Below are positions 380 through 64,000 of a DNA stretch of 64,000 bases, one piece after another (positions within the stretch are counted from its first letter, which is position 1; each line of letters starts with the position of its first letter). The DNA comes from Candidatus Woesearchaeota archaeon. GTDB taxonomy: Archaea; Nanobdellota; Nanobdellia; Woesearchaeales; 0-14-0-80-44-23. Below the pieces are notes generated by a model. That model was given only the letters and a program-made list of their open reading frames with translations. It searched no databases and had not been told where the DNA came from. The translations under genes were made by a program, and so were the position numbers. The stretch covers positions 448,001 to 512,000 of the forward strand of contig JAVZCZ010000001.1 in NCBI GenBank assembly GCA_038874135.1, written 5' to 3'.

Positions 380-395
380 ATCTCTTTTAAACCTT

Positions 396-2224: not shown

Positions 2225-2233
2225 GTTTTGCCC

Positions 2234-3214: not shown

Positions 3215-3294
3215 CTCGGCAGAAACTCTTTTTTCAGTATAAATTTTTATTGTTTCACTTTTAAAGAGTAAAAAATTCTGGGCAAGATTTAAAT

Positions 3295-3972: not shown

Positions 3973-3974
3973 AA

Positions 3975-6900: not shown

Positions 6901-9900
6901 AGTGTAGTTATGTTAAATAAGGAGGTATCATTTAAAGAGAAGTTTAGTTCATCTCCGTAAGGTATGTCTGGGTCTGAGGCATTTATATAAAGCACAAATT
7001 GAGATTCTGCTCTCAACTGCTGAGTGCCGATTGGATTAAGTTTAGGCGGGTCCGGAAGGCAGTTTACAGAAACTTTAAAGTTGTTGCTGTATGTCTCGTT
7101 TTCAGAATCAGAAGCTACAACCATCACAGTCTGATTTCCGCACCAGTTGCTCGCTGCTGAGAGCAAAACATTTCTATTTTCATCTACAACCATGCTTATT
7201 GCTGAGGCGCTGCCATTGGAAAGTTCAATGCGGAAGGTTAAATTATCTTTGTTGGCATCAGTGCATTCCAGCTCGTCAGGATCGTAGAATATTCTATTTA
7301 GATTAAATGCGTTTTGAAGGAAAGAGTCCTCATCCCAGGATTGGTTTTCAATTGTTCCGTTAAGCACAGGTGGCCTATTGAGGTTTGTAACATTTACTGT
7401 CCAGGAATGAGAATCATTTAAGTTATATGAATCTCTTACCATTACAGTTATGTTGTGAAGTCCAGCATCACAGAAGCTTGTAGTGTAGTTGATTGCGCTC
7501 TTGTTATATTCAAAAGGATTGTTATCAACATACCATTCTGAGGTCAGATAGTCTCCATAGGGAATGTCAGGATCACTGGCAGTGTAGTTAAACATGAAGC
7601 CAAGCGTGTAGTTCTCTTCAATGGAGACGCTCTCATTTTGAGGGAACCATCCTGTTATTGATGGGGGGTCGTTAATGTTTAGGATGGTGTAAGTTGGCTG
7701 CTTCTGGTCTAGAAGAACTCCGTTTTCTGCCTTTACGGATATTGTGACGATGTGCGATCCGACATCTGAATTACTGGGTGTGAATGTTATTCTGCCGCAG
7801 GTGTTGTTTATCTTCTCTATTGAGGAAAATAACGGGTTTCCTACAAGGGTGTCAAATGTTATGTTCTGATCGTATGGATTCGTTACATACACATAGACTG
7901 TTACATTTTCGCTCTGGTTAAATGTCATGTCTGAGGGAACAGGATTAAAACAGATGTCTCCACTGCATATGAATTCAAACCCTGTTATTGAAAGCCTTCT
8001 CCCGAGAAGACCGCGCTGATTTGCCACAATTAGGCCTGATATTATAAGCAGGAGCATTATTGCAGCTATGCCTGCGGTTAAGTTATGCTTGTGAGCATCT
8101 TTTCTGGCCATGCCTGTTCTGCTTCCCCCTATTCTGTTGTAAAGCTGAATTATTTTTTGTTTTAAAATCTTTTTTTCTTCCTCTTTTAGTATGGAATATT
8201 CAGTGAGTATTTTTGAATATGCTTCTCTGGCAAGTGGAAGGTTACTATTTTCAGCTGCCCTGTTGCCCTCTTCTATTAGTTCCAGTATCCTGAAAGCTGA
8301 GGGGCTGTGAAGCTTCATTGAACTCTCGTCAGGTTTTAGGTTCAGCTTCTCTGCCTCCTGGCTGATTTTTATTATTAAATCCCTACTTAATTTAAGCGCT
8401 TTTGCTAAGTTCTGTGGTGAAGCCTTAAATCTTGCGAATTCCATCTCTTCAATTATGTTGTAAAGCTTTGAAGCTGCTTCTTTAATCTCTCCGCTGAGAG
8501 GGAGGATTTCTAACTCTCTTGAAAGGTCCTGTGCAGTAAACTCGTATCTTAAACCAAAGCCTTCCTGAAAGAAGGTTCTCACTGCAAATGAAAGCTGCTG
8601 AGCAGACTTTTTAATACTATTTTTAGCAATATTGCTGGATATACCTTCCAGGTGAAGCAGAGCCCTCTCCTCTGCTGTCAGTATTGGGTTCTCAGCTGGA
8701 GTCTTCATAAAATTCAATGAAGAAACTCCCCTGGCAACCACTTTTGCAATTCCTATGAGTATAATTGCTGAGAGGGAAAGCGTGAAAAAAATTAGAATAC
8801 CCTTTTGCCTACTCCCAACCACGCTGAGCTGTGCAGGCATCTCAATCTTAGAGCACGGCTGGCATGGTCCTCCGCAGTCAACTCCTGTTTCGCCCTGGTT
8901 CTGTATTCCGTCAGAGCAGTTGGGGCAGGGAGCACATAGTCCTCCGCAGTCAACTCCGGTTTCAAGGCCATTCTTTATCAGGTCTGAGCAGCTTGGACAG
9001 CTCGGGCAGGGCCCTCCGCAGTCCACGCCCTCCTCGCCATTGTTCTTTACCAGGTCGTAGCAGGACGGCTCGTATAGGCACTCAGAATATTCTTCCGGCT
9101 TGCTTCTGTTTGTACTGCAGTTGTGCAGGTCTATGCAGTTTCTGAGGCGTATTCCTGAGTATAGGCATGGGCTCCATTCAGTGCAATTCCAGAGTGGTAT
9201 GCATGAGGAAGACATTCCGCCTCCTGAGCTTGTTTCTTTGGGAGGAACGTGTATTACTGAGAGGAGCACCTCGTTGCTCTCAGCTATAAGCCCTGCTGGG
9301 TCGTGAGCATAGAATCTTACTGTTTGGTTTCCGTACCAGAAGTATTCCGGCTGTAGCGTTATCATGCTGGAGTTGCTTATTTCCACTTTTATGTGCGGCA
9401 CGGGGCTTGAGTCGTATCTGAGTTTTTCCCCGTCTGGGTCTGCGAAGTAGTCGTTCAGGTATAATCCTGAGAACTGCCTATTTTCCAGCCATGTAATGTT
9501 GGGTATTGGAGAGATTAAAACTGGAGGCCTGTTTGTGATTAGGAAGGTAGAGTATTTAGTTAACGATTGAATTTCAAGTTCTGGAGAGTAGCAGGTGACT
9601 GTCCAGTTGTGTATTCCCGTTGTGGTAAAGCTTCTTGTGTATTCGTATAGCAGGCTCGCGTTGTTGAAGCTCATCCGTACAGGAGTAGCGTATCTGTTAT
9701 TTTCTTCAAAGCTTGCTTCGCAGTAGTATTGGCTTCCGTTAAGAATAATGCCGCCTATTGTAGTGAAGTTTGCGTAGAATGTTACATTTTGAAGCACGAA
9801 TCTCTCATACTTGTCTGTGTCGCTGAATATTTTCAGGATTGGAGTCATGTTTTCTGCTACTGAGAAGAAGAGTCTTTCTCCAATTCCGAATGTGTATACT

Positions 9901-10742
9901 CTCATTATGTATGTTGAGTTGTTATAAGCTAAGAACTTGCAGATTGAGTTGGGACAGTTCTTTCCGTTTGCCATTGGTTTTGGTGCTTTGAAGGATAGGT
10001 TGTAAAATTCAAGTATCGCCTGCACGTCCAGGCAGGGCTCTGCGCTTGTATCTACTGATATGTTGTTGTGTTCTATTTTTACATTAGAATTGAGGTCTGC
10101 AGCATCAAAGTTTAATGTTGAATCTGAGAAGTTGATCAAGCCGACATCTGGAATTCCTATTGTAGCATCTCTTATTCTTACCCAAGAGGTAAAGTTTGAA
10201 AAGTTAGTTGTAAGCTGGTTTGCATACTTACTCCAGATTGGCGGCTGGTCTATATTGTTGATTGATATCTTTCTGACAAGAGCTATTTTCTTTTCGCATA
10301 TGCTCTCTGCCCGGGCAACAAGAGTGTATCTGCAATTCGCATCGGGAATTGTTGTAGTGTTTAAGTCCATCTCGTACTGAGAGTCCCCGTCAAAAAAGAT
10401 TGTTCCAAGCCCGTACTGCTGGTCGCCGTATTGCAGGCCTAGAGAAAGGTTTGCGAACACGCTTACATTTTTTACAGTGTCTATGCTGTAAAGGTTTGTT
10501 GCATAAATCTTTATTCGTTCAGTCCCGTTAAGAACGGCCCAGGATTGGGGGTAGATGAACCACACTTCTGAGGGTGGCCCGACGCAGAGTCTGATTTGTG
10601 TGGTAGTTTTTCCTAGGAGAGGTTGAGATGGCAGGGAAAGGTAGAGGAATGTGAAGTTTAGGCAGACGATTATTAGGAGGAGTAGAGAGAAAATGAAGAG
10701 GGCTATCCTGTTGTTCTCATCTCCTGAATCTGGATTGTTCAT
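3975..10742 (-). CDS. Giant (2255 aa) multi-pass cell-surface protein with Ig/cadherin-like repeats and Cys-rich ETGVDCGG repeats; putative adhesin
   Basis: Four hydrophobic segments; many N-x-S/T sequons; repeated NxPP...A(S/T)DPD...D modules; three C-x-D-x3-N-x2-E-x-GVDCGG-x-C-x2-C units. Confidence 0.8.
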   Translation of the reverse strand: MNNPDSGDENNRIALFIFSLLLLIIVCLNFTFLYLSLPSQPLLGKTTTQIRLCVGPPSEVWFIYPQSWAVLNGTERIKIYATNLYSIDTVKNVSVFANLSLGLQYGDQQYGLGTIFFDGDSQYEMDLNTTTIPDANCRYTLVARAESICEKKIALVRKISINNIDQPPIWSKYANQLTTNFSNFTSWVRIRDATIGIPDVGLINFSDSTLNFDAADLNSNVKIEHNNISVDTSAEPCLDVQAILEFYNLSFKAPKPMANGKNCPNSICKFLAYNNSTYIMRVYTFGIGERLFFSVAENMTPILKIFSDTDKYERFVLQNVTFYANFTTIGGIILNGSQYYCEASFEENNRYATPVRMSFNNASLLYEYTRSFTTTGIHNWTVTCYSPELEIQSLTKYSTFLITNRPPVLISPIPNITWLENRQFSGLYLNDYFADPDGEKLRYDSSPVPHIKVEISNSSMITLQPEYFWYGNQTVRFYAHDPAGLIAESNEVLLSVIHVPPKETSSGGGMSSSCIPLWNCTEWSPCLYSGIRLRNCIDLHNCSTNRSKPEEYSECLYEPSCYDLVKNNGEEGVDCGGPCPSCPSCSDLIKNGLETGVDCGGLCAPCPNCSDGIQNQGETGVDCGGPCQPCSKIEMPAQLSVVGSRQKGILIFFTLSLSAIILIGIAKVVARGVSSLNFMKTPAENPILTAEERALLHLEGISSNIAKNSIKKSAQQLSFAVRTFFQEGFGLRYEFTAQDLSRELEILPLSGEIKEAASKLYNIIEEMEFARFKASPQNLAKALKLSRDLIIKISQEAEKLNLKPDESSMKLHSPSAFRILELIEEGNRAAENSNLPLAREAYSKILTEYSILKEEEKKILKQKIIQLYNRIGGSRTGMARKDAHKHNLTAGIAAIMLLLIISGLIVANQRGLLGRRLSITGFEFICSGDICFNPVPSDMTFNQSENVTVYVYVTNPYDQNITFDTLVGNPLFSSIEKINNTCGRITFTPSNSDVGSHIVTISVKAENGVLLDQKQPTYTILNINDPPSITGWFPQNESVSIEENYTLGFMFNYTASDPDIPYGDYLTSEWYVDNNPFEYNKSAINYTTSFCDAGLHNITVMVRDSYNLNDSHSWTVNVTNLNRPPVLNGTIENQSWDEDSFLQNAFNLNRIFYDPDELECTDANKDNLTFRIELSNGSASAISMVVDENRNVLLSAASNWCGNQTVMVVASDSENETYSNNFKVSVNCLPDPPKLNPIGTQQLRAESQFVLYINASDPDIPYGDELNFSLNDTSLFNITTLSPIGIAVINFTPTNEQIGEYVIKIIVTDSDSFSDAEDVLFNISNNHAPIIEPISNQSVNETSTFTMQVLATDPDNDNITFSATSNNYFPSLYISSTGLMNFTLNQGDVGNHTVTIIATDVWGAYSNYSFNFEVININQKPELEELGTKRAKINKPFALIIRAFDPDIMCGDTLTFQLNDSSLFSLQYYNETAVMINFTPSEAQIGNYSFTINVSDAYGEHDSKQLNITIDYNFIPQILISEINATEGDNFYMNFSQYVLDLDNDPLNFSYVLLDDFPNFYLSQSGLMYFTLNKSDIGNHTINITVSDEENQSTKQLLFRVLPINNPPTLIPSDELIAYENTTFIIQINATDLENDPLEFIYTLLDSFPNFRMLSSGLINFTPNSTDIGTHMINITVREVLNYSRNDSKMFKITVKHKNNPPEIMEYAPINLTVLMYENESVTFTQHTVDPDFDNITYSWILDGVPNSTAENFTYAPGYFGSGVHLLQFIASDGENETSITWNITVLNVNRPPYFGIFYDTNFENNSYYQNLSFTHSVELALENSSQHYLKGALISRVLDLQEDNSNYPHFTINSAEYLGYVPSETSVQLYLRTSSDNTNWGAWTECNPECANLTSNRYVQYQLVLLTSRSEQTPVIEAVRINYTISNVTIPDNINLWWVYLGNFFKDDDLENLTYNYTMLSGVGFLNLTMSLNGRVQLIPLAEGNAVIKFSASDPEGANVESNAVNVTIKKISSPVPVPQNSGGGSTTVVFQQIPKEVPYSMNIIVPQPITIYKNETISIPIKIVNSGNITLNKISLDVTSENKNVTISISPELIERLNPGEEAGATVIITSYQMFGSYEVLVRAMVEDPRFNETNKIFINSLEKGTLDRKALDMRIAYTRDLLSQNSICLELNEFIKQAEADVEMGNYEKAARVLSSVVENCQYLISQKERIYQKPSTFSLKITRNFIIVASSLAVIFILTLSVVLYTRRKFK
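8860..9065 (-). repeat. Three tandem 72-bp Cys-rich coding repeats (GVDCGG)
   Basis: cctccgcagtc recurs at about 8869, 8941 and 9013. Confidence 0.85.
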
Positions 10743-26593: not shown

Positions 26594-26652
26594 AAAACAG
26601 GTTTGTCAGGCGGCAAAGCTTTATAAATTTTAGAATAAAACATTCATCTAAA

Positions 26653-28584
26653 ATGCACATCAATAGGAAAGGGCACTGGCTGGTGTTCTTTCTCACAATC
26701 GGCTCTTTAATAATATTCGCATTTCTATACGCTACCTTATACAAGAAGGATACACAGCTGACCAAATACATCGGATTTGAACAGATAAGAATGCTGGACA
26801 CATACGCTCAGGGAGAAAAAGCTCTTTATTTCATAGATGTCGCTTCAAAATATGCAATCTATGATGCAGCCGTAAAATTGGGTGAAAACGGAGGCCTGTG
26901 GGGAAGCAGCTGCGGACTGGCTGACGGATTTCAGGCGTGGAGGGATAGAGCTCAGGAGTGCTATCCAAACTCAAGGGACGCTCTGATCAACTTTCAAAAG
27001 GCTTACAGCGATTCGCTCATCAAATACTTAAATTCGTATCCTGAAGGAAGCCTGCCTGTTGGCAAGTACTACTCCATAATCGCTTGGAATAATGACAAAA
27101 CTACAAGCGTAGTGGGCACTACCAAGGAGAGCATAGCAATAATTCCGCCTGGAAGTATTGAAGCATCAATTGACGCTTCAAAGGGGTTTGCATATCCGAT
27201 ACAGAAAAATGGAGGTATTAAAGCTGATAAGTTCTTTGTAACATCCTGTTTTGGAATTAGGATACTTAATGGCGAGCAGGATTCTCATCCTGGTGTTGAT
27301 TTTGGACATCCTGAAGGCACGCCAATATATGCAGTTGACGAAGGAATTGTAGAAGATGTAAGTTATGACTGCAAAAGCAGGTGCGAGGGCTTAATAGGAG
27401 AGGATAAGTGGGGTCCAAGCTGCTACTGCGGATCGGGATATGGGAACTATGTCAAGATAAAACATTCTAACTTTGAAACGGTGTATGCGCATCTGAAGGA
27501 AATCTTTGTAAAGGAAGGCGACTCTGTAAGCAAGGGGCAGCAGATTGGAACTGAGGGGAGCACTGGAAAATCAACAGGTCCACACCTGCACTTTGAACTC
27601 AGAATTAAAGGAAACGCGGTAAATCCGCTATGCGTATATGACACAAATTCTGGAAACTTTGTTTTTTCCGACGGCGGCGATGGAAGCTGCGAGCGTACAA
27701 TGCAGTGCAGCTATGTTGTAACAGCAAGCTCAACCGGCACAAGTGCTGATGAGTCAACATTTAAAGCCGGAGATCTAAGCTATTATGTCAATCCTTCATT
27801 CAAAGCCTCTGCTGAATACAGCTTTCAAATATATGACATTCTGAGTGAGAAGGCAAAAACTATAGTTAAAGCGTGCTCCAAGAAGAGTTATGATGAGAGG
27901 GCGCAGTGCGTAATGAGTAAGTCAAAAGAGCTTTCTGATAGCGAAGTTGAGCTTAGTGTTTGCAGTCAGAAAAAATTCAAATTTGGTGAAGAAGCAATAA
28001 TAACCCTGTTAAGAAGTATTGAAGAAGAATGCCTGGACGGGGACGGCTGTTACTGTTACACGGACTTATTGAACATACCTGCAATAGAGGTGCCTGATGG
28101 GACTTATGATTTTGAAGTAAGTAATGGCTTTCTAAAAGCGAAGGTGTGTACCAGCAGCAATTGCATTTCATCAACTAGGCTTGTGTTCCTCTCAGATAAT
28201 TATGATGATGCTTCTTATAACTTAGGATTCCCAACGACAATTTCTACGAATTACGAAATTGGAATAACTTACAGGAGTGGAAAAATAGTTAGTGCACAAC
28301 TCAGATTTGAGGACTCTTCCGGAAATATGCATGTTTGGGACCTTTCAAACCTTATAATTTTCAAGAAGAGAGGAATTGCGGGAGAACTCTTCTCAATGAT
28401 AGTTAACAAAGACGCATTTGAAAATCCAGACAACCACTTTAAAGAGTATATGAGCTGCGGTTTTTCTCCGGATGCATTTACCTTCTGCGCTATTGACAAG
28501 ACAAACAAGATTCCAGTTTATGTGCCAAACAAAAATAAGCTGTCATTAGAGAACCCAACAATAAAATTCGCACTTTACATATAA
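26653..28584 (+). CDS. Membrane-anchored M23 (LytM/lysostaphin-type) metallopeptidase with pilin-like leader
   Basis: RKG followed by a hydrophobic stretch at the N-terminus; HPGVDF (HxxxD), GYGNYV, YAHL, GSTGKSTGPHLHFE (HxH), VNP. Confidence 0.88.
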   Translation: MHINRKGHWLVFFLTIGSLIIFAFLYATLYKKDTQLTKYIGFEQIRMLDTYAQGEKALYFIDVASKYAIYDAAVKLGENGGLWGSSCGLADGFQAWRDRAQECYPNSRDALINFQKAYSDSLIKYLNSYPEGSLPVGKYYSIIAWNNDKTTSVVGTTKESIAIIPPGSIEASIDASKGFAYPIQKNGGIKADKFFVTSCFGIRILNGEQDSHPGVDFGHPEGTPIYAVDEGIVEDVSYDCKSRCEGLIGEDKWGPSCYCGSGYGNYVKIKHSNFETVYAHLKEIFVKEGDSVSKGQQIGTEGSTGKSTGPHLHFELRIKGNAVNPLCVYDTNSGNFVFSDGGDGSCERTMQCSYVVTASSTGTSADESTFKAGDLSYYVNPSFKASAEYSFQIYDILSEKAKTIVKACSKKSYDERAQCVMSKSKELSDSEVELSVCSQKKFKFGEEAIITLLRSIEEECLDGDGCYCYTDLLNIPAIEVPDGTYDFEVSNGFLKAKVCTSSNCISSTRLVFLSDNYDDASYNLGFPTTISTNYEIGITYRSGKIVSAQLRFEDSSGNMHVWDLSNLIIFKKRGIAGELFSMIVNKDAFENPDNHFKEYMSCGFSPDAFTFCAIDKTNKIPVYVPNKNKLSLENPTIKFALYI

Positions 28585-44191: not shown

Positions 44192-44254
44192 TTGCGTTGT
44201 AGAAATATTTTTAAATGAAGAAAAAATTAAAGGAAATAGGGGGTGGGTTATATT

Positions 44255-47200
44255 ATGATTGAATCAAGAACTTCAATCTGGGATGAGTGCACTGGGCTTT
44301 ACAAATTAAAGAAGACCTTAAGATTCAGGCTGAAACCGATTGGCAAAACAGAAGAGTTCATAATAGAAAGGAAGATTATAGAAAATGACGAAGAACTTGC
44401 CAGAGATTCTGAAAGAGCTAAAAAAATAATAGATGAATATTATAGAAATTTCATAGCAGACAGGTTAAGAAATACAAAAATTAGCCTAGATAGTCTAAAA
44501 GAGTATGAAAAAAAGTATTTAGAGTTGAAAAAAGACAAAAAGAATAAAAACGCAACAAAAGAGTTCTCTACAATTCAAAAAAACCTCATTAAAGAAGTTC
44601 ACGATAAGTTCTTTGAAGGTACACAAAAAAATGAATTATTTGAAGACGACTTAATTAAAAATAGACTTCCCAATTGGTTAGAAAAAGAAAAAAGAGAAGA
44701 AGACAGAAAATTGATAGAAAAATTCAATAAGTTTGTTACATATTTTCATCCATTTTTTGAAAAAAGAAAAAATGTATTCTCAAATGAGGAGAAATCCACC
44801 TCGCTATTTTACAGAATTGTTGGTGAAAATTTACCAAGATATATTGATAACATAAAAAAGTATGAGAAGATAAGTCAATATTCAGATTTTGATTGCAGCA
44901 CACTAGAGAAAGAATTCTATCATGAATTAGGGGAAAAAAAATTAGATGAATTTTTCAAACTTGAAAACTTTAATGAGTTCCTAAGCCAGGAAGGAATAGA
45001 CAGATTCAACCTCGTAATAGGTGGTAAGTCGTTAGAAGGTAATAAAAAAATTCAGGGGCTCAACGAGCTGATTAACCTGTACTCCCAAAAACAGCCTGAA
45101 GACAAAAAACGGGAAATAAAAAAACTTTTAATGGTGCCACTATACAAGCAAATTCTAGGAGAAAAAAATACATTCTCTTTTGCTGAAGCAAAAATAGAAG
45201 ACGATGTAGAAGTAGTATCTACACTTCATGAGTTCTACACAGGAATCTCAAATGAGTTTGAAATAATAAAAAACATTTTTGAAAATATACTACAATACGA
45301 CGCTAGTGGGATCTATTTAAAAAAATCCTCTCTGAGTTACATATCTAAGGAGATATATAATGAGTGGGATCTTATTAATAGAGGATTAGATGCGTACGCA
45401 CAAAAAGACTTAAAAACTAAAAAAGAAAGAGACGCTTGGCTTAAAAAGACGTATTTTTCTCTAGAAGAAATTAAACAGTCATTAAGCTGCCTAGACGAAG
45501 AAGGTAAGTATTGGCAAACCTTTTTTGAGTACTACGCTGGAAAAAATAGCATTATAACGAAGCTTATAGATCAAGTAAAAGAAAAATACTCTCAGCTTAG
45601 CGAATTAAAACCGACTAAAAACGAGAAAGCACTCACAAAAGAAGAGAACTACAAAGATGTAGAAAAGATAAAGGAATTTTTAGATGTAGCTATGCAGCTG
45701 TATAAGATAATAAAACCGTTCAACTTAAGAAATAAAGAAGAAAGCTCACCATTGGAGATTAACGCAGAGTTCTACAACAAATTTGAAGAAGCATACGAAC
45801 CTTTTGAAAAAATCGTAGGAGTATATAACAGAATAAGAAATTATGTGACACAAAAACCTTTCAGCACTGATAAAATAAAAATAACATTCAAAAAATCAAA
45901 ATTATTAAACGGTTGGGATGTTAACAAAGTAAAAGATTGTCGGGGAATAATATTGGAGAAGGAAGGAAAATACTTCTTAGGTATTATTGAAGATACGGAA
46001 GAATTCGATAGGATAAAAAAGAAGGAAGAAGTAAAAGGACCAGCATATAAACTTGTGGAGTACAAATTAATTCCTGAACCTGCAAAAGAATTGGCACATG
46101 TGTTTTTTTCAGAAAAATACAAAAAAATGTATCCAATTCCTAAAGAGATAGAAGAAATAAGAAAGTATGCTAGTTACAGCAAAAATGCGAAGCTGCAAGA
46201 TGGTTATGAGAAGAAGGAATTCAAAATTGAGGACTGCCATAAGATGATAAACTTTTACAAAGAGGGTATAAAAAAACATCCGGAATGGAACAAGAAGTTT
46301 AATTTTAAATTCAAAGAAACATCTGAGTACAAAGATATTAAAGAATTTTTCCAAGATGTTCATAACCAGGCGTATGAAATAGAGTATGAATACATACCTG
46401 AATCTGAAATAAATCAAATGGTAAATGATGGCAAGCTGTACCTATTCCAGCTGTGGAACAAAGATTTTTCACCCTACTCAAAAGGTAGGAAGAACCTGCA
46501 CACGCTCTACTGGCAGGCATTATTCAGTGAAGAAAACCTAAAGGATGTAAAATTCAAGTTAGACGGAGGCGCAGAAATTTTTTTCAGAAATAAATCCATA
46601 GAAAATCCCACAATTCACCGAGCAGGGGGACCTATTGAAAACAAGAATCCAATTAGAGAAAAAGAAAGAAGCATATTCAAATATGACATCATAAAGGACA
46701 GGAGGTATACGGAAAACCAGTTCTTTTTACATTGCCCAATAACACTAAATTTCAAATTAGAAGAATTAAAAAGAAAAGATCTAAACAAAAATATCAACGA
46801 GATTATAGAGAAAAATCACTCAAAGGTTAACATTCTAAGCATTGACCGCGGTGAGAGAAACCTGCTGTATTACACACTGCTCTCACCTGAAGGGAGGATA
46901 ATAGAACAAAAATCATTAAACATTTTATACGATGATATTAATAGAAAACACTCATACTGGGATAAGCTTGATGAACTTGAACAAGAAAGGAAACGAGCAA
47001 GAGTAAACTGGAGCAAAATAAAGAATATAAAAGAGATGAAAGAGGGTTACCTATCAAAGGCAGTTCACGATATCTGCAAAATGGCTGTGGAGCATAATGC
47101 AGTGATAGTTTTAGAAGACTTAAACACCGAATTCAAGCGCGGAAGATCAAAGATAGAAAAACAGGTATACCAGAAGTTTGAAAAGATGCTAATTAATAAG

Positions 47201-47995
47201 TTAAACTACCTCGTATTCAAAGACAGGGAAGAAACGCAAAAAGGCGGACTGTTAAATGCATATCAGCTAACCAGCCAATTTACATCATTTGAGGAAATAG
47301 GAAAACAAACGGGAATAATATTCTATGTAGATGCGGGCTACACTTCAGCCATATGTCCCAAAACAGGATTTGTAAATATGCTCCACCCAAAGTACACAAA
47401 CATAAAAGCTGCACAGGACTTTTTCAAAAGATTTAAGTCAATAAGATACAACAGTAAAGAGAAATACTTTGAATTCACTTTCAAGTATGCAGACTTCTTA
47501 GAAAAAGACTCTAAAAATGAATACAACCAGAAAGAATGGACTGTTTGCAGCTTTGGAACGAGATTTGTAATAAAGAAGAAAAACAATTTGATAACTGGAG
47601 AAACTGAAGAGGTGCATGTAACGGAAAAACTCAAGGACCTATTCAAAAAGGAAGGAATCACATACGAGGATGAAAGAAACCTTGTTAAAGAGATAATTAA
47701 AAGCGAGAATAAGACATTCTTTGAAGAATTGATCTACCTGTTAAGATTAGTTCTGCAAATGAGAAACTTTGACAGTCAAAAAAATGAAGATTTTATATTG
47801 TCCTGCGTGAGAGATGCTTCGGGAAACTTCTTTGACTCTAGAAGAGCAGATAAGGATGAACCTCAAAATGCAGACGCAAACGGAGCATTACATATAGGAC
47901 TAAAAGGAATTCTGACAATCAAAAAGATCATTAAAGGAGAAAAACCTCATGTAGATAGGGAAGAGTATCTAGAATATGTGATAGCGAGGCACTGA
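44255..47995 (+). CDS. cas12a: Type V-A CRISPR effector Cas12a (Cpf1)
   Basis: LYKLKKTLRFRLKPIGKT, GLNELINLY, YNRIRNYVTQKPFS, GWDVNK, LYLFQLWNKDFS, NLHTLYW; RuvC SIDRGERNL / IVLEDLN / NADANGA; ATG 44255 preferred over GTG 44243. Confidence 0.97.
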   Translation: MIESRTSIWDECTGLYKLKKTLRFRLKPIGKTEEFIIERKIIENDEELARDSERAKKIIDEYYRNFIADRLRNTKISLDSLKEYEKKYLELKKDKKNKNATKEFSTIQKNLIKEVHDKFFEGTQKNELFEDDLIKNRLPNWLEKEKREEDRKLIEKFNKFVTYFHPFFEKRKNVFSNEEKSTSLFYRIVGENLPRYIDNIKKYEKISQYSDFDCSTLEKEFYHELGEKKLDEFFKLENFNEFLSQEGIDRFNLVIGGKSLEGNKKIQGLNELINLYSQKQPEDKKREIKKLLMVPLYKQILGEKNTFSFAEAKIEDDVEVVSTLHEFYTGISNEFEIIKNIFENILQYDASGIYLKKSSLSYISKEIYNEWDLINRGLDAYAQKDLKTKKERDAWLKKTYFSLEEIKQSLSCLDEEGKYWQTFFEYYAGKNSIITKLIDQVKEKYSQLSELKPTKNEKALTKEENYKDVEKIKEFLDVAMQLYKIIKPFNLRNKEESSPLEINAEFYNKFEEAYEPFEKIVGVYNRIRNYVTQKPFSTDKIKITFKKSKLLNGWDVNKVKDCRGIILEKEGKYFLGIIEDTEEFDRIKKKEEVKGPAYKLVEYKLIPEPAKELAHVFFSEKYKKMYPIPKEIEEIRKYASYSKNAKLQDGYEKKEFKIEDCHKMINFYKEGIKKHPEWNKKFNFKFKETSEYKDIKEFFQDVHNQAYEIEYEYIPESEINQMVNDGKLYLFQLWNKDFSPYSKGRKNLHTLYWQALFSEENLKDVKFKLDGGAEIFFRNKSIENPTIHRAGGPIENKNPIREKERSIFKYDIIKDRRYTENQFFLHCPITLNFKLEELKRKDLNKNINEIIEKNHSKVNILSIDRGERNLLYYTLLSPEGRIIEQKSLNILYDDINRKHSYWDKLDELEQERKRARVNWSKIKNIKEMKEGYLSKAVHDICKMAVEHNAVIVLEDLNTEFKRGRSKIEKQVYQKFEKMLINKLNYLVFKDREETQKGGLLNAYQLTSQFTSFEEIGKQTGIIFYVDAGYTSAICPKTGFVNMLHPKYTNIKAAQDFFKRFKSIRYNSKEKYFEFTFKYADFLEKDSKNEYNQKEWTVCSFGTRFVIKKKNNLITGETEEVHVTEKLKDLFKKEGITYEDERNLVKEIIKSENKTFFEELIYLLRLVLQMRNFDSQKNEDFILSCVRDASGNFFDSRRADKDEPQNADANGALHIGLKGILTIKKIIKGEKPHVDREEYLEYVIARH

Positions 47996-48000
47996 AAAAA

Positions 48001-48561
48001 TTGGAAGAAAATATAATCATATCAAACATAAACGACTTCATATTCTGTCCGAGAAGCATCTACTTTCACAATCTTTACAGCAATTATGATGAACACCTAT
48101 ATCATGAAAACCCGCAAGTGGAAGGAAGAATAGTTCACAATAGCATTGACAAAAAACAATACAGCACAAGGCGAGACGTTCTTCAAGGAGTTGAAGTTTA
48201 CAGCGAATCTTTGGGAGTGATAGGTAAAATAGACTTATTTGACAAAAAAGAAGGAGTTCTAACAGAGCGTAAGAAGAGAATAAGCAGGATTTACGAAGGC
48301 TATCTTCTCCAGATGTATGCACAGTACTTCTGCTTAACTGAAATGGGATTTGCAGTCAAAAAAATACGACTGTACTCAGTAATGGACAACAAGACATACG
48401 AGGTAAAAATTCCTGGAGATGAAGACCTACATAAGCTTATGGAATTGCTGAAAAGAATGAGAAGTTTCAGGCTGGAAGACAAATCTTTTTCTCAAAACTT
48501 AAAAAAATGTGAAAAATGCATATATCGCAATATGTGCGATTACTACGCAGATGATGAGTAA
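48001..48561 (+). CDS. cas4: Cas4 (type V-A)
   Basis: INDFIFCPRSIYFH, GKIDLF, ERK, QMYAQYFCL, C-x2-C-x5-C. Confidence 0.95.
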   Translation: MEENIIISNINDFIFCPRSIYFHNLYSNYDEHLYHENPQVEGRIVHNSIDKKQYSTRRDVLQGVEVYSESLGVIGKIDLFDKKEGVLTERKKRISRIYEGYLLQMYAQYFCLTEMGFAVKKIRLYSVMDNKTYEVKIPGDEDLHKLMELLKRMRSFRLEDKSFSQNLKKCEKCIYRNMCDYYADDE

Positions 48562-49525
48562 ACCCGACTTTATGGAAAAGCAGGTTCTGTTTTTAGAGAG
48601 TAGTGAAGCTAAAAAAATATCATTCAAAAATTCAAATCTTCAAGTTACAGATGAAAATGGAAGGATAATACTTCAAAACTCCTGCCACAAAATATTTTTA
48701 GTCTTTATCCGGGGAGAGTTCACTATAACTTCTGTGCTTCTTAAGAATGCAAAGAGGTTTGGATTTCCACTAGTTTTTCTGACTTACTCTCTAAGACCAT
48801 ATCTGGTTTACAATGCAGGCACTGAAGGTAACTTCCTTCTAAGAAGAGTGCAATATTCGTGCAACAGAAGTTTTGAAATTGCAAAACACATAGTCTACAA
48901 TAAAGTATTAAATCAAGTTCAACTGATGAAATCGCTGAGATATAAAACAAAAGAAGAAAAAAAGGCAATAGAGATTATTGAAAAATTGTTAACATCTATA
49001 AAAACAGCTAATGACGAACAAGAACTCCTGGGCATTGAAGGAGAATCCTCAAAGCTATTCTTCAGAACATACTTCAAAAACATTAACTTCAGCGGCAGAA
49101 AACCTCGGATAAAACCGGACATATACAACTGCCTATTAGACATAGGATACACCTACCTGTTTCAATTCATTGAAGCAAACCTGAGCCTATACGGATTTGA
49201 CCTATACTGCGGAGTATATCACAAGCAGTTCTATCAGCGAAAATCATTAGTGTGCGACATCATAGAGCCTTTCAGGTGCGTCATAGAAAAGAGAATTCGC
49301 ACAAGTTGCAATCTGAAACAAATTGATGAAAAAGATTTTGTAAGTATACAGGGAAGATACGAGCTAAAAAAAGAAGCAACACAAAAATACAGTGAAATAC
49401 TACTAAGAGCAATTCTAGAATACAAACAGGACATCTTCCTTTATGTAAGATCATACTACCGCGCATTCATAAAACAGAAGGAAATAGAGGCGTACCCAAT
49501 ATTTAGGATAGGTGAGGATAGATGA
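48551..49525 (+). CDS. cas1: Cas1 (type V-A)
   Basis: LLGIEG, LLDIGYTYLF, GVYH, SLVCDIIEPFR; start set at MMSKPDF (48551). Confidence 0.95.
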   Translation: MMSKPDFMEKQVLFLESSEAKKISFKNSNLQVTDENGRIILQNSCHKIFLVFIRGEFTITSVLLKNAKRFGFPLVFLTYSLRPYLVYNAGTEGNFLLRRVQYSCNRSFEIAKHIVYNKVLNQVQLMKSLRYKTKEEKKAIEIIEKLLTSIKTANDEQELLGIEGESSKLFFRTYFKNINFSGRKPRIKPDIYNCLLDIGYTYLFQFIEANLSLYGFDLYCGVYHKQFYQRKSLVCDIIEPFRCVIEKRIRTSCNLKQIDEKDFVSIQGRYELKKEATQKYSEILLRAILEYKQDIFLYVRSYYRAFIKQKEIEAYPIFRIGEDR

Positions 49526-58680: not shown

Positions 58681-59133
58681 TTATTTGATGCATATCTTGA
58701 GGCTTGCCTTAAGCGGCTTTCCCTGCAATGTTGCCAGAACCACTTCTCCTGAATTCAGGTTTGAGCATTTGGAAAGCTTGTTTATCTCCATTATCTGGCT
58801 CTCTCCATAACTTGCTGTGAATTTGTAGTCTTCCTTTCTCACTCCGAGAGAGCTGTCAAGTATTTGGGTAACTACTTGTTTTACATTTTCACACTCCTTA
58901 CTTTGAGGGTCTTCGCCGCATTTTTCAAGCGCATCCTTTATTGTACCTTCTCCGTAGCTCGTACTTACCAAGGCGTTTACAAAGCTCCAGGCAAGTTTGC
59001 TATACTGAACTTCTTTTGTGACTGAAGGCTTTTTTGCATTTGAAGAGGTCAGTCCCACTACAAAGAGTACTAAGAGAATTAAGATCACTACTGCAATTGC
59101 GATTCCCAATATTTCCGTCTGCGCCCGTCTCAT
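58681..59133 (-). CDS. Pilin-like protein (class III-type leader)
   Basis: MRRA|QTEILGIAIAVVILILLV; paired Cys. Confidence 0.65.
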   Translation of the reverse strand: MRRAQTEILGIAIAVVILILLVLFVVGLTSSNAKKPSVTKEVQYSKLAWSFVNALVSTSYGEGTIKDALEKCGEDPQSKECENVKQVVTQILDSSLGVRKEDYKFTASYGESQIMEINKLSKCSNLNSGEVVLATLQGKPLKASLKICIK

Positions 59134-59609
59134 ATGTAAACCCTCACAGAGAGCATCCCAAAAGAGTACTGTTCTGAAGTTGCATTGTATGCTGTAACTG
59201 GAAATTCAAACAGAGTACTGCTTTTTCCCTTTCCATTTGTAATAATAAATGTGCCAACCTCAGGGTATATCAGAGAGAGCTTTATCTCATAGTTGTATGC
59301 TCTGGAAGAATATGCGCCAAATGCGGTTGAGTAGAATATGTTTTTCTCCTTTTGTTTAAAAACTAAAAACTTATAGATGTCTATGCAGTTCTGCACATCG
59401 CATCTTATCTCAGGCATGTTAAGAATAACCTGAGCAAGGGCAGCTGCTTGAAGCTCTCTCCTATCATTCAGCTGCTGAGATGACAACTCCTGCTGTTTTT
59501 TTGACAAGAACAGCATTGCAAAGAGTATTAGGGCTGTAAAGAAGACTACGGCAAGTATTACTTCTAACATTCTTCCCTGAGCCTTCCCTTTTAGTAAATT
59601 GTTGGGCAT
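59130..59609 (-). CDS. Pilin-like protein (class III-type leader)
   Basis: KGKA|QGRMLEVILAVVFF; PEIRC...CID. Confidence 0.65.
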   Translation of the reverse strand: MPNNLLKGKAQGRMLEVILAVVFFTALILFAMLFLSKKQQELSSQQLNDRRELQAAALAQVILNMPEIRCDVQNCIDIYKFLVFKQKEKNIFYSTAFGAYSSRAYNYEIKLSLIYPEVGTFIITNGKGKSSTLFEFPVTAYNATSEQYSFGMLSVRVYI

Positions 59610-60616
59610 GAGTTCCTCTCCATCATACTTTCTCTTGAAGATATTTTTTGGATGTGACTCTCAAGCTGGGAGAATGTTGAACTATCAGGCTTTAATATTT
59701 GAGGACTGCTGAGGAAGTCGGCATATGCCAAGAGTTCATTTTTCGCTTCTTGAAGGCTCACCTTGCAAACATTACTCTCAACAAAATTAGAAAGCATAAC
59801 TGCACGCTGGGCAGAAAGGTTAATTATCCCGACCAAACGGTTAAGCGCCTTATTAGCGGAGCAGGAATACTCATCAGCATTTTCAGAAAGAACTGCTCCA
59901 GCCATCATCTCGTCACTGAGGTATGCTAATGTATTATGCCCTGTTGGAGTGTAGTAGGTTACGGTTCCAAAGGAGTTCTTTTCTGAGCTTATCTTAACAA
60001 CTGAGACCTGAGTGTTTATCATCTTTTTTACACTGTCTGGCGGTTCCTCATTGAAGTAAACTATCCTAACGCTTTTTCCCTTCCTGCGCTGTATTGCTGA
60101 GGTTATTGATTCAACCTCACCAACTTCTGAAATGTCAGTTCCTTCGGGAAGTATGCGTTTGAGCAGTGGGATCATATAGTCATTTTGCGGGTTTCTGACA
60201 AGCAGGTAGCTATCTGCGGGAGATGTTAGTAGGATTATGCTTCCCGCATTCATGGGTATTTGCCAAGATATGCTCTTCATAAATATGCTGCCAGAATCAG
60301 AGGATAGTTTTTTAGGAGCAAACGCAGAGCCAATATCAACTGGCTGGATTTTTTCATGAACTTGAATTCCGCCATCCTCGCAGCTAAAGGTTGCAGATAG
60401 TTTTCCAAGGTTGATTTGCAAGTAGGACTCCTTCTGAGATGAAGAGTACGCGCTGAGCACTGCAGATTCTAATGAGTCTCTTACTGCAATTGCTTGGTTC
60501 AGTTCTGAGGCTGAGCGTTGTACGGAGATAAATTTGAAAATTACAAACAAGAAGACTCCCGCTCCTATCAGAACATATATCCAGTTTATCTGAGTTTCTA
60601 CTTCAGCCCTTTTCAT
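59591..60616 (-). CDS. Larger pilin-like membrane-anchored protein
   Basis: MKRA|EVETQINWIYVLIGAGVFLF; C-terminal CPTIY. Confidence 0.62.
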   Translation of the reverse strand: MKRAEVETQINWIYVLIGAGVFLFVIFKFISVQRSASELNQAIAVRDSLESAVLSAYSSSQKESYLQINLGKLSATFSCEDGGIQVHEKIQPVDIGSAFAPKKLSSDSGSIFMKSISWQIPMNAGSIILLTSPADSYLLVRNPQNDYMIPLLKRILPEGTDISEVGEVESITSAIQRRKGKSVRIVYFNEEPPDSVKKMINTQVSVVKISSEKNSFGTVTYYTPTGHNTLAYLSDEMMAGAVLSENADEYSCSANKALNRLVGIINLSAQRAVMLSNFVESNVCKVSLQEAKNELLAYADFLSSPQILKPDSSTFSQLESHIQKISSRESMMERNSCPTIY

Positions 60617-60627
60617 TTTTATCAGAA

Positions 60628-63600
60628 CTACTTAGCATGCTTCTTTTTTGAACTGACTTCTTTTTTGCCTTTCGCTATTATTTTTTGCAGCTCCTGCTTT
60701 ATCTTTTCCTTCTCACTTTTTCTGTCTGCAGCTATCTTTTTGAGTTCTGCTCGCATTTCAAGCTCGTCTAAGCTCTTTTCTTCTCTTCTTTTGTTTTCTT
60801 CAGCTTCTTTACTTTCTCGCGGTGCTTCAGCTGGCTGAGAAACCTCAGAGGTGTCATATATTGGGCTTTCTGTTTCTTTCTTGCTGTTATATTCTTCAAA
60901 CTTGCTGAAGAGTTTCGCCCTTTCTTTCTCCCTGACAAGCGCCCTTATTCTGGCAATCTGCTCAGGAGTCATCCCGGCAAACTCCCGTATGTCTGGACGG
61001 GGACCTAATTCAGAGCTTCTTTGTTTACTTAAGAGGATTGGTGACCCTTCTGATCCTTTTCCCAGATTTCTTAGTTGAATTCCTCCACCTTTGAAATCCG
61101 GAGGAGCATTAAATAGTGGTTTCTTGCTTTTCTTCTGCTGGGCAGTGTAGTAATAGTATAATAGTCCTCCCCCGCCAATAATGAGTATTACTATGAGGAG
61201 AATTAAGAGAAGATTGCTTCCTCCAGATGCTGGAGCGCACTTTCTATCTTTACAATTTCCAGATTCGCAGTCTAGGTCGCCTTCACACGCTTTGCCTTCT
61301 GTGCAAGGAGCACAGCTTCCTCCGCAGTCAACATCCGTCTCATCACCGTCTTTTTTACCATCCTTGCAAGTAGAAGTACAGACATCATCTTCACAAATCA
61401 AGGAGCCGTAACAGTCTTTATTAACCTTACACTTTTTGCCCTCGTTGCATGGAGTGCAGCTTCCCCCGCAGTCAACATCTGTCTCATCACCATTCAATGT
61501 TTCGTCGGAACAGGTGTCGTTGGTTGTATTAGTATTTATGGAGCAGAATCCGTTTAGGCAAACAAGACCTTTTTGGCAGTCAGAGTCAAGTATGCAGCTA
61601 GATCCCAAGGGGCAGGGATCACACTCTTTTCCTCCGCAGTCAACTCCAGTTTCTCCATATTCAGAATCTTTCTTATGATTAGTGCAGTGCGGGTTAACTA
61701 TGCAGCGCTTTGTTGTGTTGTCACAAAGTTTTGAGTTGCAATCAGTATTGTTTATGCAGAGCTTTCCATCAGGGCAAGGATCGCAGGAGTTTCCACCGCA
61801 GTCAACATCTGTCTCGTTGCCATTCTTTACGCCATCATTGCATCCTGGGAGTATGCACTTTTTTGAAGTGATGTTGCAAAGCCCCGTCTTGCAGTCACGG
61901 TTTATGGTACAGTTTTTTCCTCCTTCACAAGGAATACAAAATCCGCCGCCGCAGTCAACATCTGTTTCTTGACCGTTCTTTATACCATCCTCGCACGGAT
62001 TGTAACTCAGGTTTATTCTTACGCCGTCGCTCTTATTAAAGCCAACCCTTCCAGAATAATCAGTAACCCACGCGTAGATGTAATAAACACTATTGTTCTT
62101 AAGTTCCAGCCCCTCAATGTAGAAATAGCCATCTTCCGGAGCGCCGCTTTCTGTAAAGTTCTCGGAAATAGAAATTCCATTCTGATCATACACCTGATAG
62201 GAATATTTAGCTATTCCGCAGCTGGGCTCCGGATCATCAGCGCTTATTTTCACTCTCAGTTTTTCTGCTGAGAAGCTTATGTTCTGATATCCTGCATATC
62301 CTGAGGAGTCGTCAACAGAGACTACAGGATCTGCGGAGTCTAAGCGGACTGTAAATTTCTTTTCTGCATAATCTGAATCGCCCACTTGGCAATAGACGAT
62401 GTAATCCTGACTATTCATATTTTCGGGAACGGTGACTGCTGAGTAGAAAGAATAGTCAGAGCCCTGCATCTTATTCGAATTTGAATAATCAGCTTTGCTG
62501 CCCTCATTCCAGAAACACTCTGCCCTCTTGTTTGTAGTAACTTTCAGAGTGAACTCGCGAGAAGATGTGCAGAGGATTGAAGATGGTGTAAGCGGAGGGG
62601 ATTCTATTAATATTTTTAGCGGCGTGCTGGTGTTCACTGTAAATTTTATTGAAGCATTAGATTCAAGTCCAGAAAGCCCAGTGCAGCGCACAATATAATT
62701 ATAAACTTTATTATCAACTAAATCGGTGAGGAGTGCACCCTTGGTATAAGTGTATCCGAAACGAAAGTTTGAATCATCCTTCTCAAAAGGAATCCACACT
62801 GGATAGGTGTTAGCTTCATACTTGAAATATTCGCATGCTGTTGGCTGATCTGTAGTTACTCTCAAATATGTTTTAAGAGGGCTCTCATAAACCGAAGGGG
62901 CTTCAAGAGTTATCTTCGGCCTGGAAGTTATCTTAGTAAAACCGTAAGTGTATGTCCTACCAGCAGGCGAACAATTGAGCATTATGGATATCTCTTTGAA
63001 CTCAGCGATGCTTGAAAGGTCAAGGGGTGCAGAGTATATTAAGGGGTTATTAGTTGAATTTAGTTTCTGTTTGACGCCGCTAGGGTAAACTATTGAGCAG
63101 GGCTGGTCCTCTGGAAGAATATCGCTCAACTGCACCGTGAGATTTAATTTACTCAGATTTGTGTAGACGTGCTGGACATAATCTGGATACTGCACTGGAT
63201 TAGTTATCCAAGCATCTGGCTGTTCATATATTAAAACTTGCGCTTCCTGTCCCCAGTTTCTTTCGTCAATAGTTGTGTAGGTTCCCCAAACTGTTGCAGA
63301 TCCGGGGCTGATTCCTGTAAAAATGTTGGGGCTATCACTGCTCTGCTCTAGAACATAGGCGTTATTAGTTCCGAAGGTTACATTGGGTGTAACATCCATC
63401 TGATAATTATCTCCGTAGTTGACAATTCCTCTAAAAGGAATGCTAGTGCCGACGTAGCTTGCTGCGTAGGGAGGAACTATATAGAATGCAGGGTTAATTA
63501 TGCCTTTCGGCTGCACTATGAGGGAGAAATTAATTGATTTGTAAGATCTGTAGGCTGCATACAATTGTACAGTCCCCTCTTTTTGTCCAACTACGCACTT

Positions 63601-64000
63601 TCCATCTTCAGAAATTGTTGCAATTGAAGTGTTAGTTGAGACGAGCGTGTAATCTTCAACTTTTGTGCAAGAATAACTGCACTCGCTGTCAATCGTGCAT
63701 AAAAAAACATTAATCAGGTTGCATCCGATGCTTCCTTCCGATATTATAAGTTGAGACGGGGAATAGACCTGTAACATTGAATATGAAGCATTCTTAACAA
63801 CACTAATAACGGTATAGTTGCTTCTGATATTACTTCCGTAGGAGTATGTCGCATTAACCTTCGCAGTGCCCAACGCTTTTGCAGTGATATTATTGTCTGC
63901 AATTGTTATTATGTTGGTGTCATTACTGCTGAACACAGCTTGGCTTGAAATCATACTATTTGTGTTATCGCTGTAATAGGCAAAAACTGAGAGTATGCTT
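60628..64000 (-). CDS. Large surface protein with Ig-like domains, five Cys-rich ET(D/G)VDCGG repeats, a TM helix and a charged cytoplasmic tail; 5'-truncated
   Basis: Frame is open to base 64000; Big_2-like motifs (SSNDTNIITI, STNTSIATIS); TM LLLILLIVILIIGGGGLLYYYY. Confidence 0.8.
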   Translation of the reverse strand, partial: SILSVFAYYSDNTNSMISSQAVFSSNDTNIITIADNNITAKALGTAKVNATYSYGSNIRSNYTVISVVKNASYSMLQVYSPSQLIISEGSIGCNLINVFLCTIDSECSYSCTKVEDYTLVSTNTSIATISEDGKCVVGQKEGTVQLYAAYRSYKSINFSLIVQPKGIINPAFYIVPPYAASYVGTSIPFRGIVNYGDNYQMDVTPNVTFGTNNAYVLEQSSDSPNIFTGISPGSATVWGTYTTIDERNWGQEAQVLIYEQPDAWITNPVQYPDYVQHVYTNLSKLNLTVQLSDILPEDQPCSIVYPSGVKQKLNSTNNPLIYSAPLDLSSIAEFKEISIMLNCSPAGRTYTYGFTKITSRPKITLEAPSVYESPLKTYLRVTTDQPTACEYFKYEANTYPVWIPFEKDDSNFRFGYTYTKGALLTDLVDNKVYNYIVRCTGLSGLESNASIKFTVNTSTPLKILIESPPLTPSSILCTSSREFTLKVTTNKRAECFWNEGSKADYSNSNKMQGSDYSFYSAVTVPENMNSQDYIVYCQVGDSDYAEKKFTVRLDSADPVVSVDDSSGYAGYQNISFSAEKLRVKISADDPEPSCGIAKYSYQVYDQNGISISENFTESGAPEDGYFYIEGLELKNNSVYYIYAWVTDYSGRVGFNKSDGVRINLSYNPCEDGIKNGQETDVDCGGGFCIPCEGGKNCTINRDCKTGLCNITSKKCILPGCNDGVKNGNETDVDCGGNSCDPCPDGKLCINNTDCNSKLCDNTTKRCIVNPHCTNHKKDSEYGETGVDCGGKECDPCPLGSSCILDSDCQKGLVCLNGFCSINTNTTNDTCSDETLNGDETDVDCGGSCTPCNEGKKCKVNKDCYGSLICEDDVCTSTCKDGKKDGDETDVDCGGSCAPCTEGKACEGDLDCESGNCKDRKCAPASGGSNLLLILLIVILIIGGGGLLYYYYTAQQKKSKKPLFNAPPDFKGGGIQLRNLGKGSEGSPILLSKQRSSELGPRPDIREFAGMTPEQIARIRALVREKERAKLFSKFEEYNSKKETESPIYDTSEVSQPAEAPRESKEAEENKRREEKSLDELEMRAELKKIAADRKSEKEKIKQELQKIIAKGKKEVSSKKKHAK
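61240..61995 (-). repeat. Five Cys-rich coding repeats
   Basis: ccgcagtcaac recurs near 61322, 61466, 61634, 61796 and 61949. Confidence 0.85.

Follow-up and report, generated by a model that had tools for sequence, protein, structure and literature searches.

Which partners does an archaeon touch, if it seems to make no bacterial-type wall and yet encodes an enzyme predicted to cut one? We know of no established host or prey for the large Woesearchaeales-type radiation of DPANN archaea (named after Diapherotrites, Parvarchaeota, Aenigmarchaeota, Nanoarchaeota as well as Nanohaloarchaeota), and to our knowledge every cultivated DPANN archaeon lives on another archaeon. The question is raised here by one gene in a stretch of 64,000 nucleotides, hereafter the window, from the genome of a Candidatus Woesearchaeota archaeon (contig JAVZCZ010000001.1). 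The gene is an open reading frame (ORF) on the forward strand at 26653-28584 that encodes 643 residues, as a preliminary description of this DNA had reported. Position 26653 is the first start codon downstream of the preceding stop, and the gene begins at C1:474653 in genome coordinates, C1 being the genome's single contig. Judging from its sequence, this gene is the genome's single copy of a class-wide DPANN scaffold (Woesearchaeales-type) that accepts murein-hydrolase cassettes.

The scaffold and its M23 cassette

The predicted protein consists of an N-terminal module (N-module), a catalytic domain and a C-terminal module (C-module), which we delimited as follows, with hidden Markov models (HMMs), AlphaFold2 (AF2) models and the predicted local distance difference test (pLDDT) among the evidence.

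26653..26673, forward strand: residues 1-7 (M-H-I-N-R-K-G), a short basic leader that a prepilin peptidase would putatively cut after Gly7; from the sequence, N4, R5 and G7 being invariant
26674..26742, forward strand: hydrophobic N-terminal helix (residues 8-30), a membrane anchor or filament-core helix; from a 23-residue uncharged stretch and AF2 models
26743..27177, forward strand: head of the N-module (residues 31-175); from family conservation and the model
27283..27627, forward strand: Peptidase M23 (LytM-type) catalytic domain (residues 211-325), in the cassette site of the scaffold; from Pfam, structure and catalytic residues
27364..27438, forward strand: four-cysteine insertion within the M23 domain (residues 238-262; C240, C244, C257 and C259); invariant in close homologues
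27667..27768, forward strand: linker between the M23 domain and the C-module (residues 339-372), of low confidence, with pLDDT <50 for residues 355-373
27769..28584, forward strand: C-module (residues 373-643 plus the stop codon), running from Y-x-V-N-P-S-F to I-K-F-A-L-Y-I; from an HMM of the region

The catalytic domain is the most readily recognised part. The preliminary description had seen an intact M23 domain with HxxxD and HxH motifs, inserted in the middle of the protein at about 27190-27640. The domain does lie there, between two conserved flanks, although its 5' edge had been drawn slightly too wide. Pfam places PF01551 (Peptidase_M23) at residues 211-325 with an E value of 5.9e-30 and 103.8 bits against a cut-off of 28.7; a whole-genome scan matched the same place, and the M23 copy number in this genome is one. 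The zinc-binding and catalytic set is complete (H212xxxD216, H280 and H311xH313) and invariant in four full-length homologues, and the catalytic residues are retained in 22 to 25 of the 25 scaffold-linked M23 domains; H212, D216, H280, H311 and H313 presumably correspond to the residues known from LytM. The families named closest to the domain are the murein DD-endopeptidases MepM, ShyA and ShyC, while by sequence match to the PDB its nearest solved relatives are Csd1/TagE and ShyA. A full-length AF2 model (pLDDT 86.9, predicted template modelling score 0.74) agrees with this assignment. When the middle domain of the model was aligned with VIA-align, it matched 2gu1 with a Z score of 18.6 and a root-mean-square deviation of 2.0 A over 129 residues, 27 chains scoring Z >9, and Foldseek matched the M23 domain to ShyA at E 3.8e-11. 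On this evidence, the domain is predicted to be an intact zinc endopeptidase of the type that cuts murein cross-links. The four-cysteine insertion was modelled at low confidence (pLDDT 54-56), and some M23 proteins without the scaffold have a similar CxC-GSGYGN insertion. In all, the protein has 20 cysteines, 19 of which are invariant among close homologues.

The M23 domains were also placed in a quick tree, an M23 phylogeny having been among the checks proposed in the preliminary description. Scaffold-linked M23 domains clustered apart from their best bacterial matches, with 3 label changes against 20 in shuffles, so that the clustering was seen but at poor resolution: forks were poorly supported, several branches were long, and we draw from it neither donor nor timing. 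The tree gives no indication of a recent transfer into this genome, and a single origin of the scaffold-linked M23 domains may be compatible with it.

We then asked how far the flanks extend beyond this protein. Full-length matches were rare, with only 3 among 5.8 billion proteins, at 42-48% identity. Residues 1-175 alone matched 594 representative clusters at E<=1e-3 and 90 at 1e-10, always at the protein N terminus, in proteins of 110-1,334 residues. A profile of this N-module was found in 309 of 401 high-quality genomes from a sample that spans the phylum, including the same order and the same class, nearly always with one match per genome; the tally takes in five unpublished genomes (G276, G277, G351, G362 and G419), without which it is 304 of 396. 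Besides the gene itself, no N-module paralogue was found in this genome at E<=1. In the ESM Atlas, the N-terminal domain had nearest clusters that were 100% archaeal (Nanobdellota/Woesearchaeota), and the same feature search returned no usable match for the C-terminal part. Neither residues 1-175 nor residues 340-643 matched any Pfam or NCBIfam family, and a word-index search detected no stand-alone shorter forms of residues 365-643.

Which enzymes the family carries was determined by a Pfam scan of 103 members. M23 was the most frequent domain (19 members), followed by SLT (13), VanY (8), Peptidase_M15 (7), M15_3 (5) and M15_4 (3). Amidase_2, NlpC/P60, glucosaminidase, C39_2, 3D and lysozyme-like domains were found in 3 members each, CHAP in 2, and Amidase_3, YkuD and M99 in 1 each. 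In 8 of 10 long members scanned singly, which carry M23, glucosaminidase, SLT, or Amidase_2 plus 3D, the catalytic domain comes directly after the N-module, at about residues 190-370, and it precedes the C-module in the 5 of those 8 that match the C-module HMM. This HMM, built from residues 373-643, matches 57 of about 150 members of the N-module family. In scaffold-only members of 245-290 residues the C-module follows the N-module immediately, and in the protein studied here it is enlarged by an internal insertion. A search of related genomes for this scaffold with other lytic domains, as the preliminary description had proposed, thus gives a strongly positive answer (SLT, VanY/M15, amidase, glucosaminidase, NlpC/P60, CHAP and others). 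These domain architectures describe a two-part scaffold with one fixed site, which takes different murein-specific enzymes or none.

Leader, anchoring and the operon of a relative

How might such a scaffold work? In the sequence of events that we propose, the protein would be inserted via its hydrophobic N terminus, after which the 7-residue leader would probably be removed after Gly7 by the A24 prepilin peptidase of the genome. From then on its N-terminal helix would hold the protein, whether in the membrane or in a type-IV-filament-like fibre, of which it would be a minor or tip subunit and which would be built with the products of a now dispersed prepilin-like operon. On contact with a bacterium, the M23 domain would cut the peptide cross-links of that cell's peptidoglycan and so allow anchoring, local breaching or feeding. 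Leader cleavage, filament incorporation, substrate and biological purpose are all points that we infer from sequence. On balance, we favour, with modest confidence, an exported protein that is held by its N-terminal helix, probably leader-processed, and whose M23 domain cuts wall cross-links of a contacted bacterium. That the protein enters a type-IV-like fibre, be it as a minor subunit or at the tip, is a narrower proposal, which we put forward tentatively as a possible but rather doubtful extension.

The leader carries much of this argument. In 141 members of the family, the last basic residue ahead of the hydrophobic stretch is followed by Gly in 63, Ala in 54 and Ser in 14, one of the three in 131/141 (93%), whereas other ORFs of this genome that have an N-terminal transmembrane segment, scored in this way, give a background of 37%. 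A Lys or Arg stands at -3 in 91% of the members, and the median leader length is 7 residues. Since the excess over the background is so large, a class-III pattern in the family leader, beyond the positive-inside rule, is supported. The class III leader claimed for this one protein therefore holds for the family, and many other proteins in this genome bear the same kind of leader. Behind it, the family conserves the motif IGxxQ...GEKxLFYID...GG..C87..W96..C103-Y-P105, together with an amphipathic helix and a small alpha/beta head. Modelled alone, the N-module (pLDDT 86.3) has the shape of a lollipop, with one unbroken helix at residues 5-78 (74 residues) and the small alpha/beta head. In broad outline this resembles a pilin.

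The genome has genes for machinery of the kind that a processed, filament-borne protein would need. An A24 prepilin peptidase is encoded at C1:265091, three T2SSE ATPases at 257 kb, 355 kb and 416 kb (the third at C1:416564), and four T2SSF platform matches fall at 255-256 kb and 358-359 kb. The preliminary description had named the absence of a type IV pilus ATPase or peptidase from the genome as evidence against its proposal; A24, T2SSE and T2SSF are all present.

A second line of evidence comes from a distant relative (JGI contig Ga0137716_10000734), in which a minimal scaffold-M23 gene of 330 residues is next to last in a run of at least 20 co-directional genes. These encode, in order, two giant adhesin-like proteins, about 15 small proteins with [KR][KR][GA] leaders, the scaffold-M23 protein and a 457-residue protein. 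Between the last of these and the C-terminal part of the scaffold-M23 protein studied here, BLASTP found no significant similarity (E 0.075); the protein studied here could conceivably be a fusion of those two genes. The two giants are recorded at positions 1-8506: the first has at least 2,556 residues with CarboxypepD_reg, Big_13 and Glucodextran_B matches, and the second has 1,139 residues with a TSP3_bac match. Homologues of the operon genes were found by tblastn in the present genome as well, where they are scattered. Those in the window are listed here together with the giant gene beside them and the promoter element of the scaffold-M23 gene.

58681..60616, reverse strand: three prepilin-like genes (150, 159 and 341 residues), homologous to genes that open the relative's operon; from tblastn and leaders
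60628..63999, reverse strand: giant Cys-rich surface protein of at least 1108 residues, which runs off the window, directly upstream of the trio
26620..26627, forward strand: TATA-box-like element tttataaa, about 26 nt 5' of the ATG; read directly in the sequence

The leaders of the trio, with a hydrophobic helix behind each, are M-R-R-A-Q, ...K-G-K-A-Q and M-K-R-A-E. No Pfam family was found in the giant Cys-rich protein, which is likened by position only to the giant adhesins heading the relative's operon. The preliminary description had grouped the M23 gene with a pilin-like trio and giant adhesins on the strength of this window, and synteny supports it, such genes forming one operon in the relative.

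Further genes of this kind were noted along the way. The 150-residue trio member (58684-59133, reverse strand) matches DUF7263 weakly and below threshold in its first 57 residues (E 0.0035; 17.4 bits, the cut-off being 27). A nine-gene co-directional block at C1:574865-579721 (forward strand), with [KR][KR][GA] leaders, is homologous to the middle of the relative's operon. Two genes for Cys-rich pilin-like proteins of 84-85 residues at C1:626381-626902 (reverse strand), beside a ribosomal-protein cluster, likewise have counterparts in that operon and are candidate major subunits. Just upstream of the window, six large proteins (145-730 residues) are clustered at C1:426583-441129 (reverse strand), with prepilin-like leaders such as K-K-R-G|E, S-R-K-G|E and M-R-A|E.

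A number of observations weigh against a processed, filament-borne protein. In the full-length AF2 model, the helix spans residues 5-35 and breaks at residues 36-41. When the N-module model was searched with Foldseek against the PDB, no solved pilin was matched significantly (best E 0.65), and in a comparison with 48,161 chains by VIA-align the best hit was a phage sheath protein with Z 6.2, within the noise range. For the full model, the pilin-type rows were weak: Z 5.5 for GspK (model residues 39-388), 3.9 for PilX and 3.8 for a competence pilin. The structure prediction of the N terminus thus supplied the long helix and small head expected of a pilin and no significant match to a solved one; this missing match to the modelled N-module is, in turn, no evidence of a new fold. 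The putative cleavage site is followed here by His at +1 and Trp at +2, where close homologues have Asn at +1, and His and Trp at these positions look atypical and would lie outside the FlaFind pattern. The relative's operon showed neither an ATPase nor a platform gene. In the present genome, the scaffold-M23 gene is flanked by a PmbA/TldD-like gene and a tRNA-guanine transglycosylase (TGT) gene, with no adjoining pilus gene, and has a TATA box of its own.

Several of these points would equally suit a plain membrane-anchored ectoenzyme, with an uncleaved signal-anchor in type II topology, that acts at cell-cell contacts and never enters a filament; its basic residues and Gly would then merely follow the positive-inside rule. 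The helix break, the lack of a significant structural match of the N-module to pilins and the distance of the gene from pilus loci in this genome all speak for it, and bacterial MepM-type M23 enzymes likewise pair an N-terminal membrane anchor with an M23 domain. It is hard to reconcile, however, with the leader statistics, since the positive-inside rule alone hardly explains 93% Gly, Ala or Ser at -1 where 37% is the background. It also leaves aside that relatives keep the gene in an operon with about 15 proteins of like leader, and that the N-module model has an unbroken helix of 74 residues. We regard this ectoenzyme as unlikely, if a serious contender, and retain the leader-processed protein held by its helix as the preferred reading.

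Substrate and genomic setting

What would the enzyme cut? We favour bacterial murein over pseudomurein or protein because the SLT, MurNAc-L-Ala amidase (MurNAc, N-acetylmuramic acid), D-Ala-D-Ala peptidase and NlpC/P60 cassettes of the family act on bonds absent there; pseudomurein and proteins lack MurNAc and D-amino-acid bonds. A non-murein substrate, be it pseudomurein from a methanogenic host or a protein, for instance of an S-layer or of the host surface, would fit the archaeal hosts of, as far as we know, all cultivated DPANN. Some M23 members do cut non-murein proteins, and the specificity of the domain is unreadable from its sequence. This alternative is nevertheless improbable, since relatives fill this cassette site with SLT, MurNAc-L-Ala amidases, VanY/M15, glucosaminidase, NlpC/P60 and YkuD, and since the nearest named relatives of this M23 domain are murein DD-endopeptidases.

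If murein is the substrate, the enzyme could also be shed as a diffusible, bacteriocin-like weapon that kills competing bacteria, in the manner of zoocin A, lysostaphin or the haloarchaeal Woldo. M23 enzymes are the classic weaponised hydrolases, and archaeal M23 proteins that kill bacteria have been documented (PMC12352652). Such proteins are patchily distributed according to the same survey, whereas the scaffold family is single-copy and near-universal in its class. The protein has no Sec- or Tat-type cleavable signal, just the single N-terminal hydrophobic helix, and no recognised cell-wall-binding domain (LysM, SH3, PG_binding_1 and the like) was found by Pfam, which at E<=1 gave only M23 and a sub-threshold Biotin_lipoyl_2 match. 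In relatives, moreover, the gene shares an operon with structural surface proteins. We consider a shed weapon a shade less probable still than a non-murein substrate. A single-copy family that is nearly universal would better fit a core device for host contact than a bacteriocin. The "weapon" of the preliminary description thus stands as one of several possible uses, while the patchy, often multi-copy distribution expected of a bacteriocin is not seen, the N-module gene being almost always single in the 309 genomes counted above.

Remodelling of its own wall, the usual role of M23 enzymes in bacteria, is hardly tenable: an autolysin acting on self-made murein or pseudomurein was rejected, no Mur ligase (needed for pseudomurein too), SEDS or penicillin-binding protein transpeptidase family having been detected in the complete genome by searches that were positive in 10-12 of 14 control genomes.

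These empty searches agree with the statement of the preliminary description that archaea do not make peptidoglycan. The genome in question is a single contig of 909,956 bp and is 99.4% complete; genomes of same-order relatives range from 0.6 to 2.7 Mb. Its only SLT protein (C1:654316-655398, reverse strand; 360 residues) starts with an extended basic tail, has a single hydrophobic helix in its interior and lacks the scaffold N-module.

The surroundings of the gene are those of an archaeal chromosome, with housekeeping genes for PCNA, an archaeosine-type TGT, prefoldin and Nre. Since tttataaa sits about 26 nt ahead of the ATG, which is the usual archaeal promoter geometry, the TATA-like element points to a promoter of the gene's own and to an mRNA that is leaderless or nearly so. 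The TGT gene downstream is kept in a same-genus and a same-family relative. A functional tie to the PmbA/TldD-like neighbour was considered and dropped, this neighbour not being conserved in the same-genus relative, where only the downstream TGT gene is kept.

Two other loci in the window deserve mention. A complete type V-A CRISPR-Cas locus occupies positions 44243-50493, with Cas12a/Cpf1 (1,250 residues; Pfam RuvC_1, REC1, NUC, REC2 and PI), Cas4 and Cas1. Its array, at about 50004-50493, has at least 8 copies of a 36-nt repeat with a Cas12a-type end (TCTACTGTTGTAGAT). The called start of an alanyl-tRNA synthetase ORF (50436) falls within this array and is probably too far upstream. Because the GC content of the locus is 0.31-0.35, below the value of about 0.42 around it, the composition suggests a horizontally acquired island. 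The protein of 2,255 residues encoded at 3975-10742 (reverse strand), whose domains are Big_9, He_PIG and cadherin-like Ig, could plausibly be a giant adhesin.

Comparison with known systems

The idea that these archaea target bacterial walls, which underlies the attach-and-lyse system proposed in the preliminary description, has already been published for Woesearchaeota (PMC8204110, PMC9723730 and PMC12352652). One study describes large extracellular proteins with lytic transglycosylase (LT) domains in Woesearchaeota and Pacearchaeota, grouped as fam00969 (Castelle et al. 2021, PMC8204110), while another reads GH23 genes together with a pore-forming toxin as a "vampiristic" lifestyle (Vigneron et al. 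2022, PMC9723730). The large LT proteins (fam00969, PMC8204110; AR20, Castelle 2015; GH23, PMC9723730) share with our scaffold the lineage and the proposed bacterial-wall target. They probably overlap the N-module family, whose SLT members reach about 1,300 residues. There are differences as well. In the passages of PMC8204110 and PMC9723730 that were searched, the LT domain is the only one mentioned, and there is no mention of a prepilin-type leader, a shared scaffold, other cassettes or an operon. Unlike fam00969, the protein studied here has M23 and no SLT, while its SLT-bearing relatives do have the N-module.

An archaeal precedent for M23 itself comes from a survey of hydrolases, which lists M23 in four Nanoarchaeia genomes and shows that M23 and glucosaminidase proteins of haloarchaea (Woldo and Danwoldo, from Halogranum salarium) kill a bacterium (Strock et al. 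2025, PMC12352652). The survey's counts took in only hydrolases whose binding domain was known, 32% of them with signal peptides, and so would miss the scaffold family. The prepilin-like scaffold may also account for the lack of a recognised signal peptide in most of the archaeal hydrolases surveyed. Woldo resembles the present protein as an archaeal M23 enzyme presumed active on bacterial murein; it is Tat-secreted, has PG_binding_1 domains and is patchily distributed, whereas the scaffold-M23 protein has no known binding domain, has a class-III-like N terminus and belongs to a near-universal single-copy family.

In the literature searched, we found no published example of a murein hydrolase grafted into a pilin-type protein and no paper describing a shared prepilin-like scaffold, a fixed cassette site or the operon. 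According to a 2026 census, archaeal type IV filament systems are few in DPANN; neither "hydrolase" nor "peptidoglycan" turned up when its text was searched by word (PMC13705601). What appears to be new relative to the published DPANN murein hydrolases is therefore the shared scaffold, the fixed cassette site and the operon. To these the present genome adds three things: it is a complete single contig, in which wall-synthesis searches could cover the whole genome; its scaffold gene stands apart from the operon; and its C-module is enlarged.

The published lytic transglycosylase proteins were a hint of bacterial partners, and the distribution of the scaffold shows that this hint is no oddity of a few genomes: one conserved, single-copy prepilin-like scaffold gene, in about three quarters of the good genomes sampled, is a socket for at least 10 kinds of murein-specific enzymes. 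It offers a concrete handle on whether these archaea attach to or attack bacteria, in the form of a localisable protein, a testable cleavage site and an assayable enzyme, and the cassette type of each genome can be set against the wall chemistry of the bacteria that occur with it. More speculatively, and as a minority possibility, an undescribed type-IV-like fibre of DPANN could carry the scaffold at its tip or as a minor subunit. A conserved operon of giant adhesins and about 15 prepilin-like proteins would encode this fibre, and murein-cutting enzymes would repeatedly have been plugged into one fixed site of the subunit. If so, it would be a wall-breaching device mounted on a fibre, and most archaea of the Woesearchaeales type (probably of the Pacearchaeales type too) would dock onto or prey on bacteria, not archaea.

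Two bacterial systems mark the limits of the likeness. With GspK, from the tip complex of type II secretion (PDB 3ci0), the scaffold shares the proposed logic of a pilin-type helix and a head with a grafted domain. GspK also gave the best structural row outside M23 (the Z of 5.5 mentioned above), yet this is within noise and accompanied by no sequence similarity, and the grafts in our family are murein hydrolases. With MepM of E. coli, ShyA of V. cholerae, Csd1 of H. pylori and LytM of S. aureus, the protein shares the Pfam family, the zinc and catalytic residues and the fold, whereas its flanks are unrelated to their LysM, OapA or Csd3-N domains. What sets it apart from these bacterial LytM-type enzymes is an archaeal host in which no murein-synthesis families were detected, a DPANN-specific scaffold and a four-cysteine insertion.

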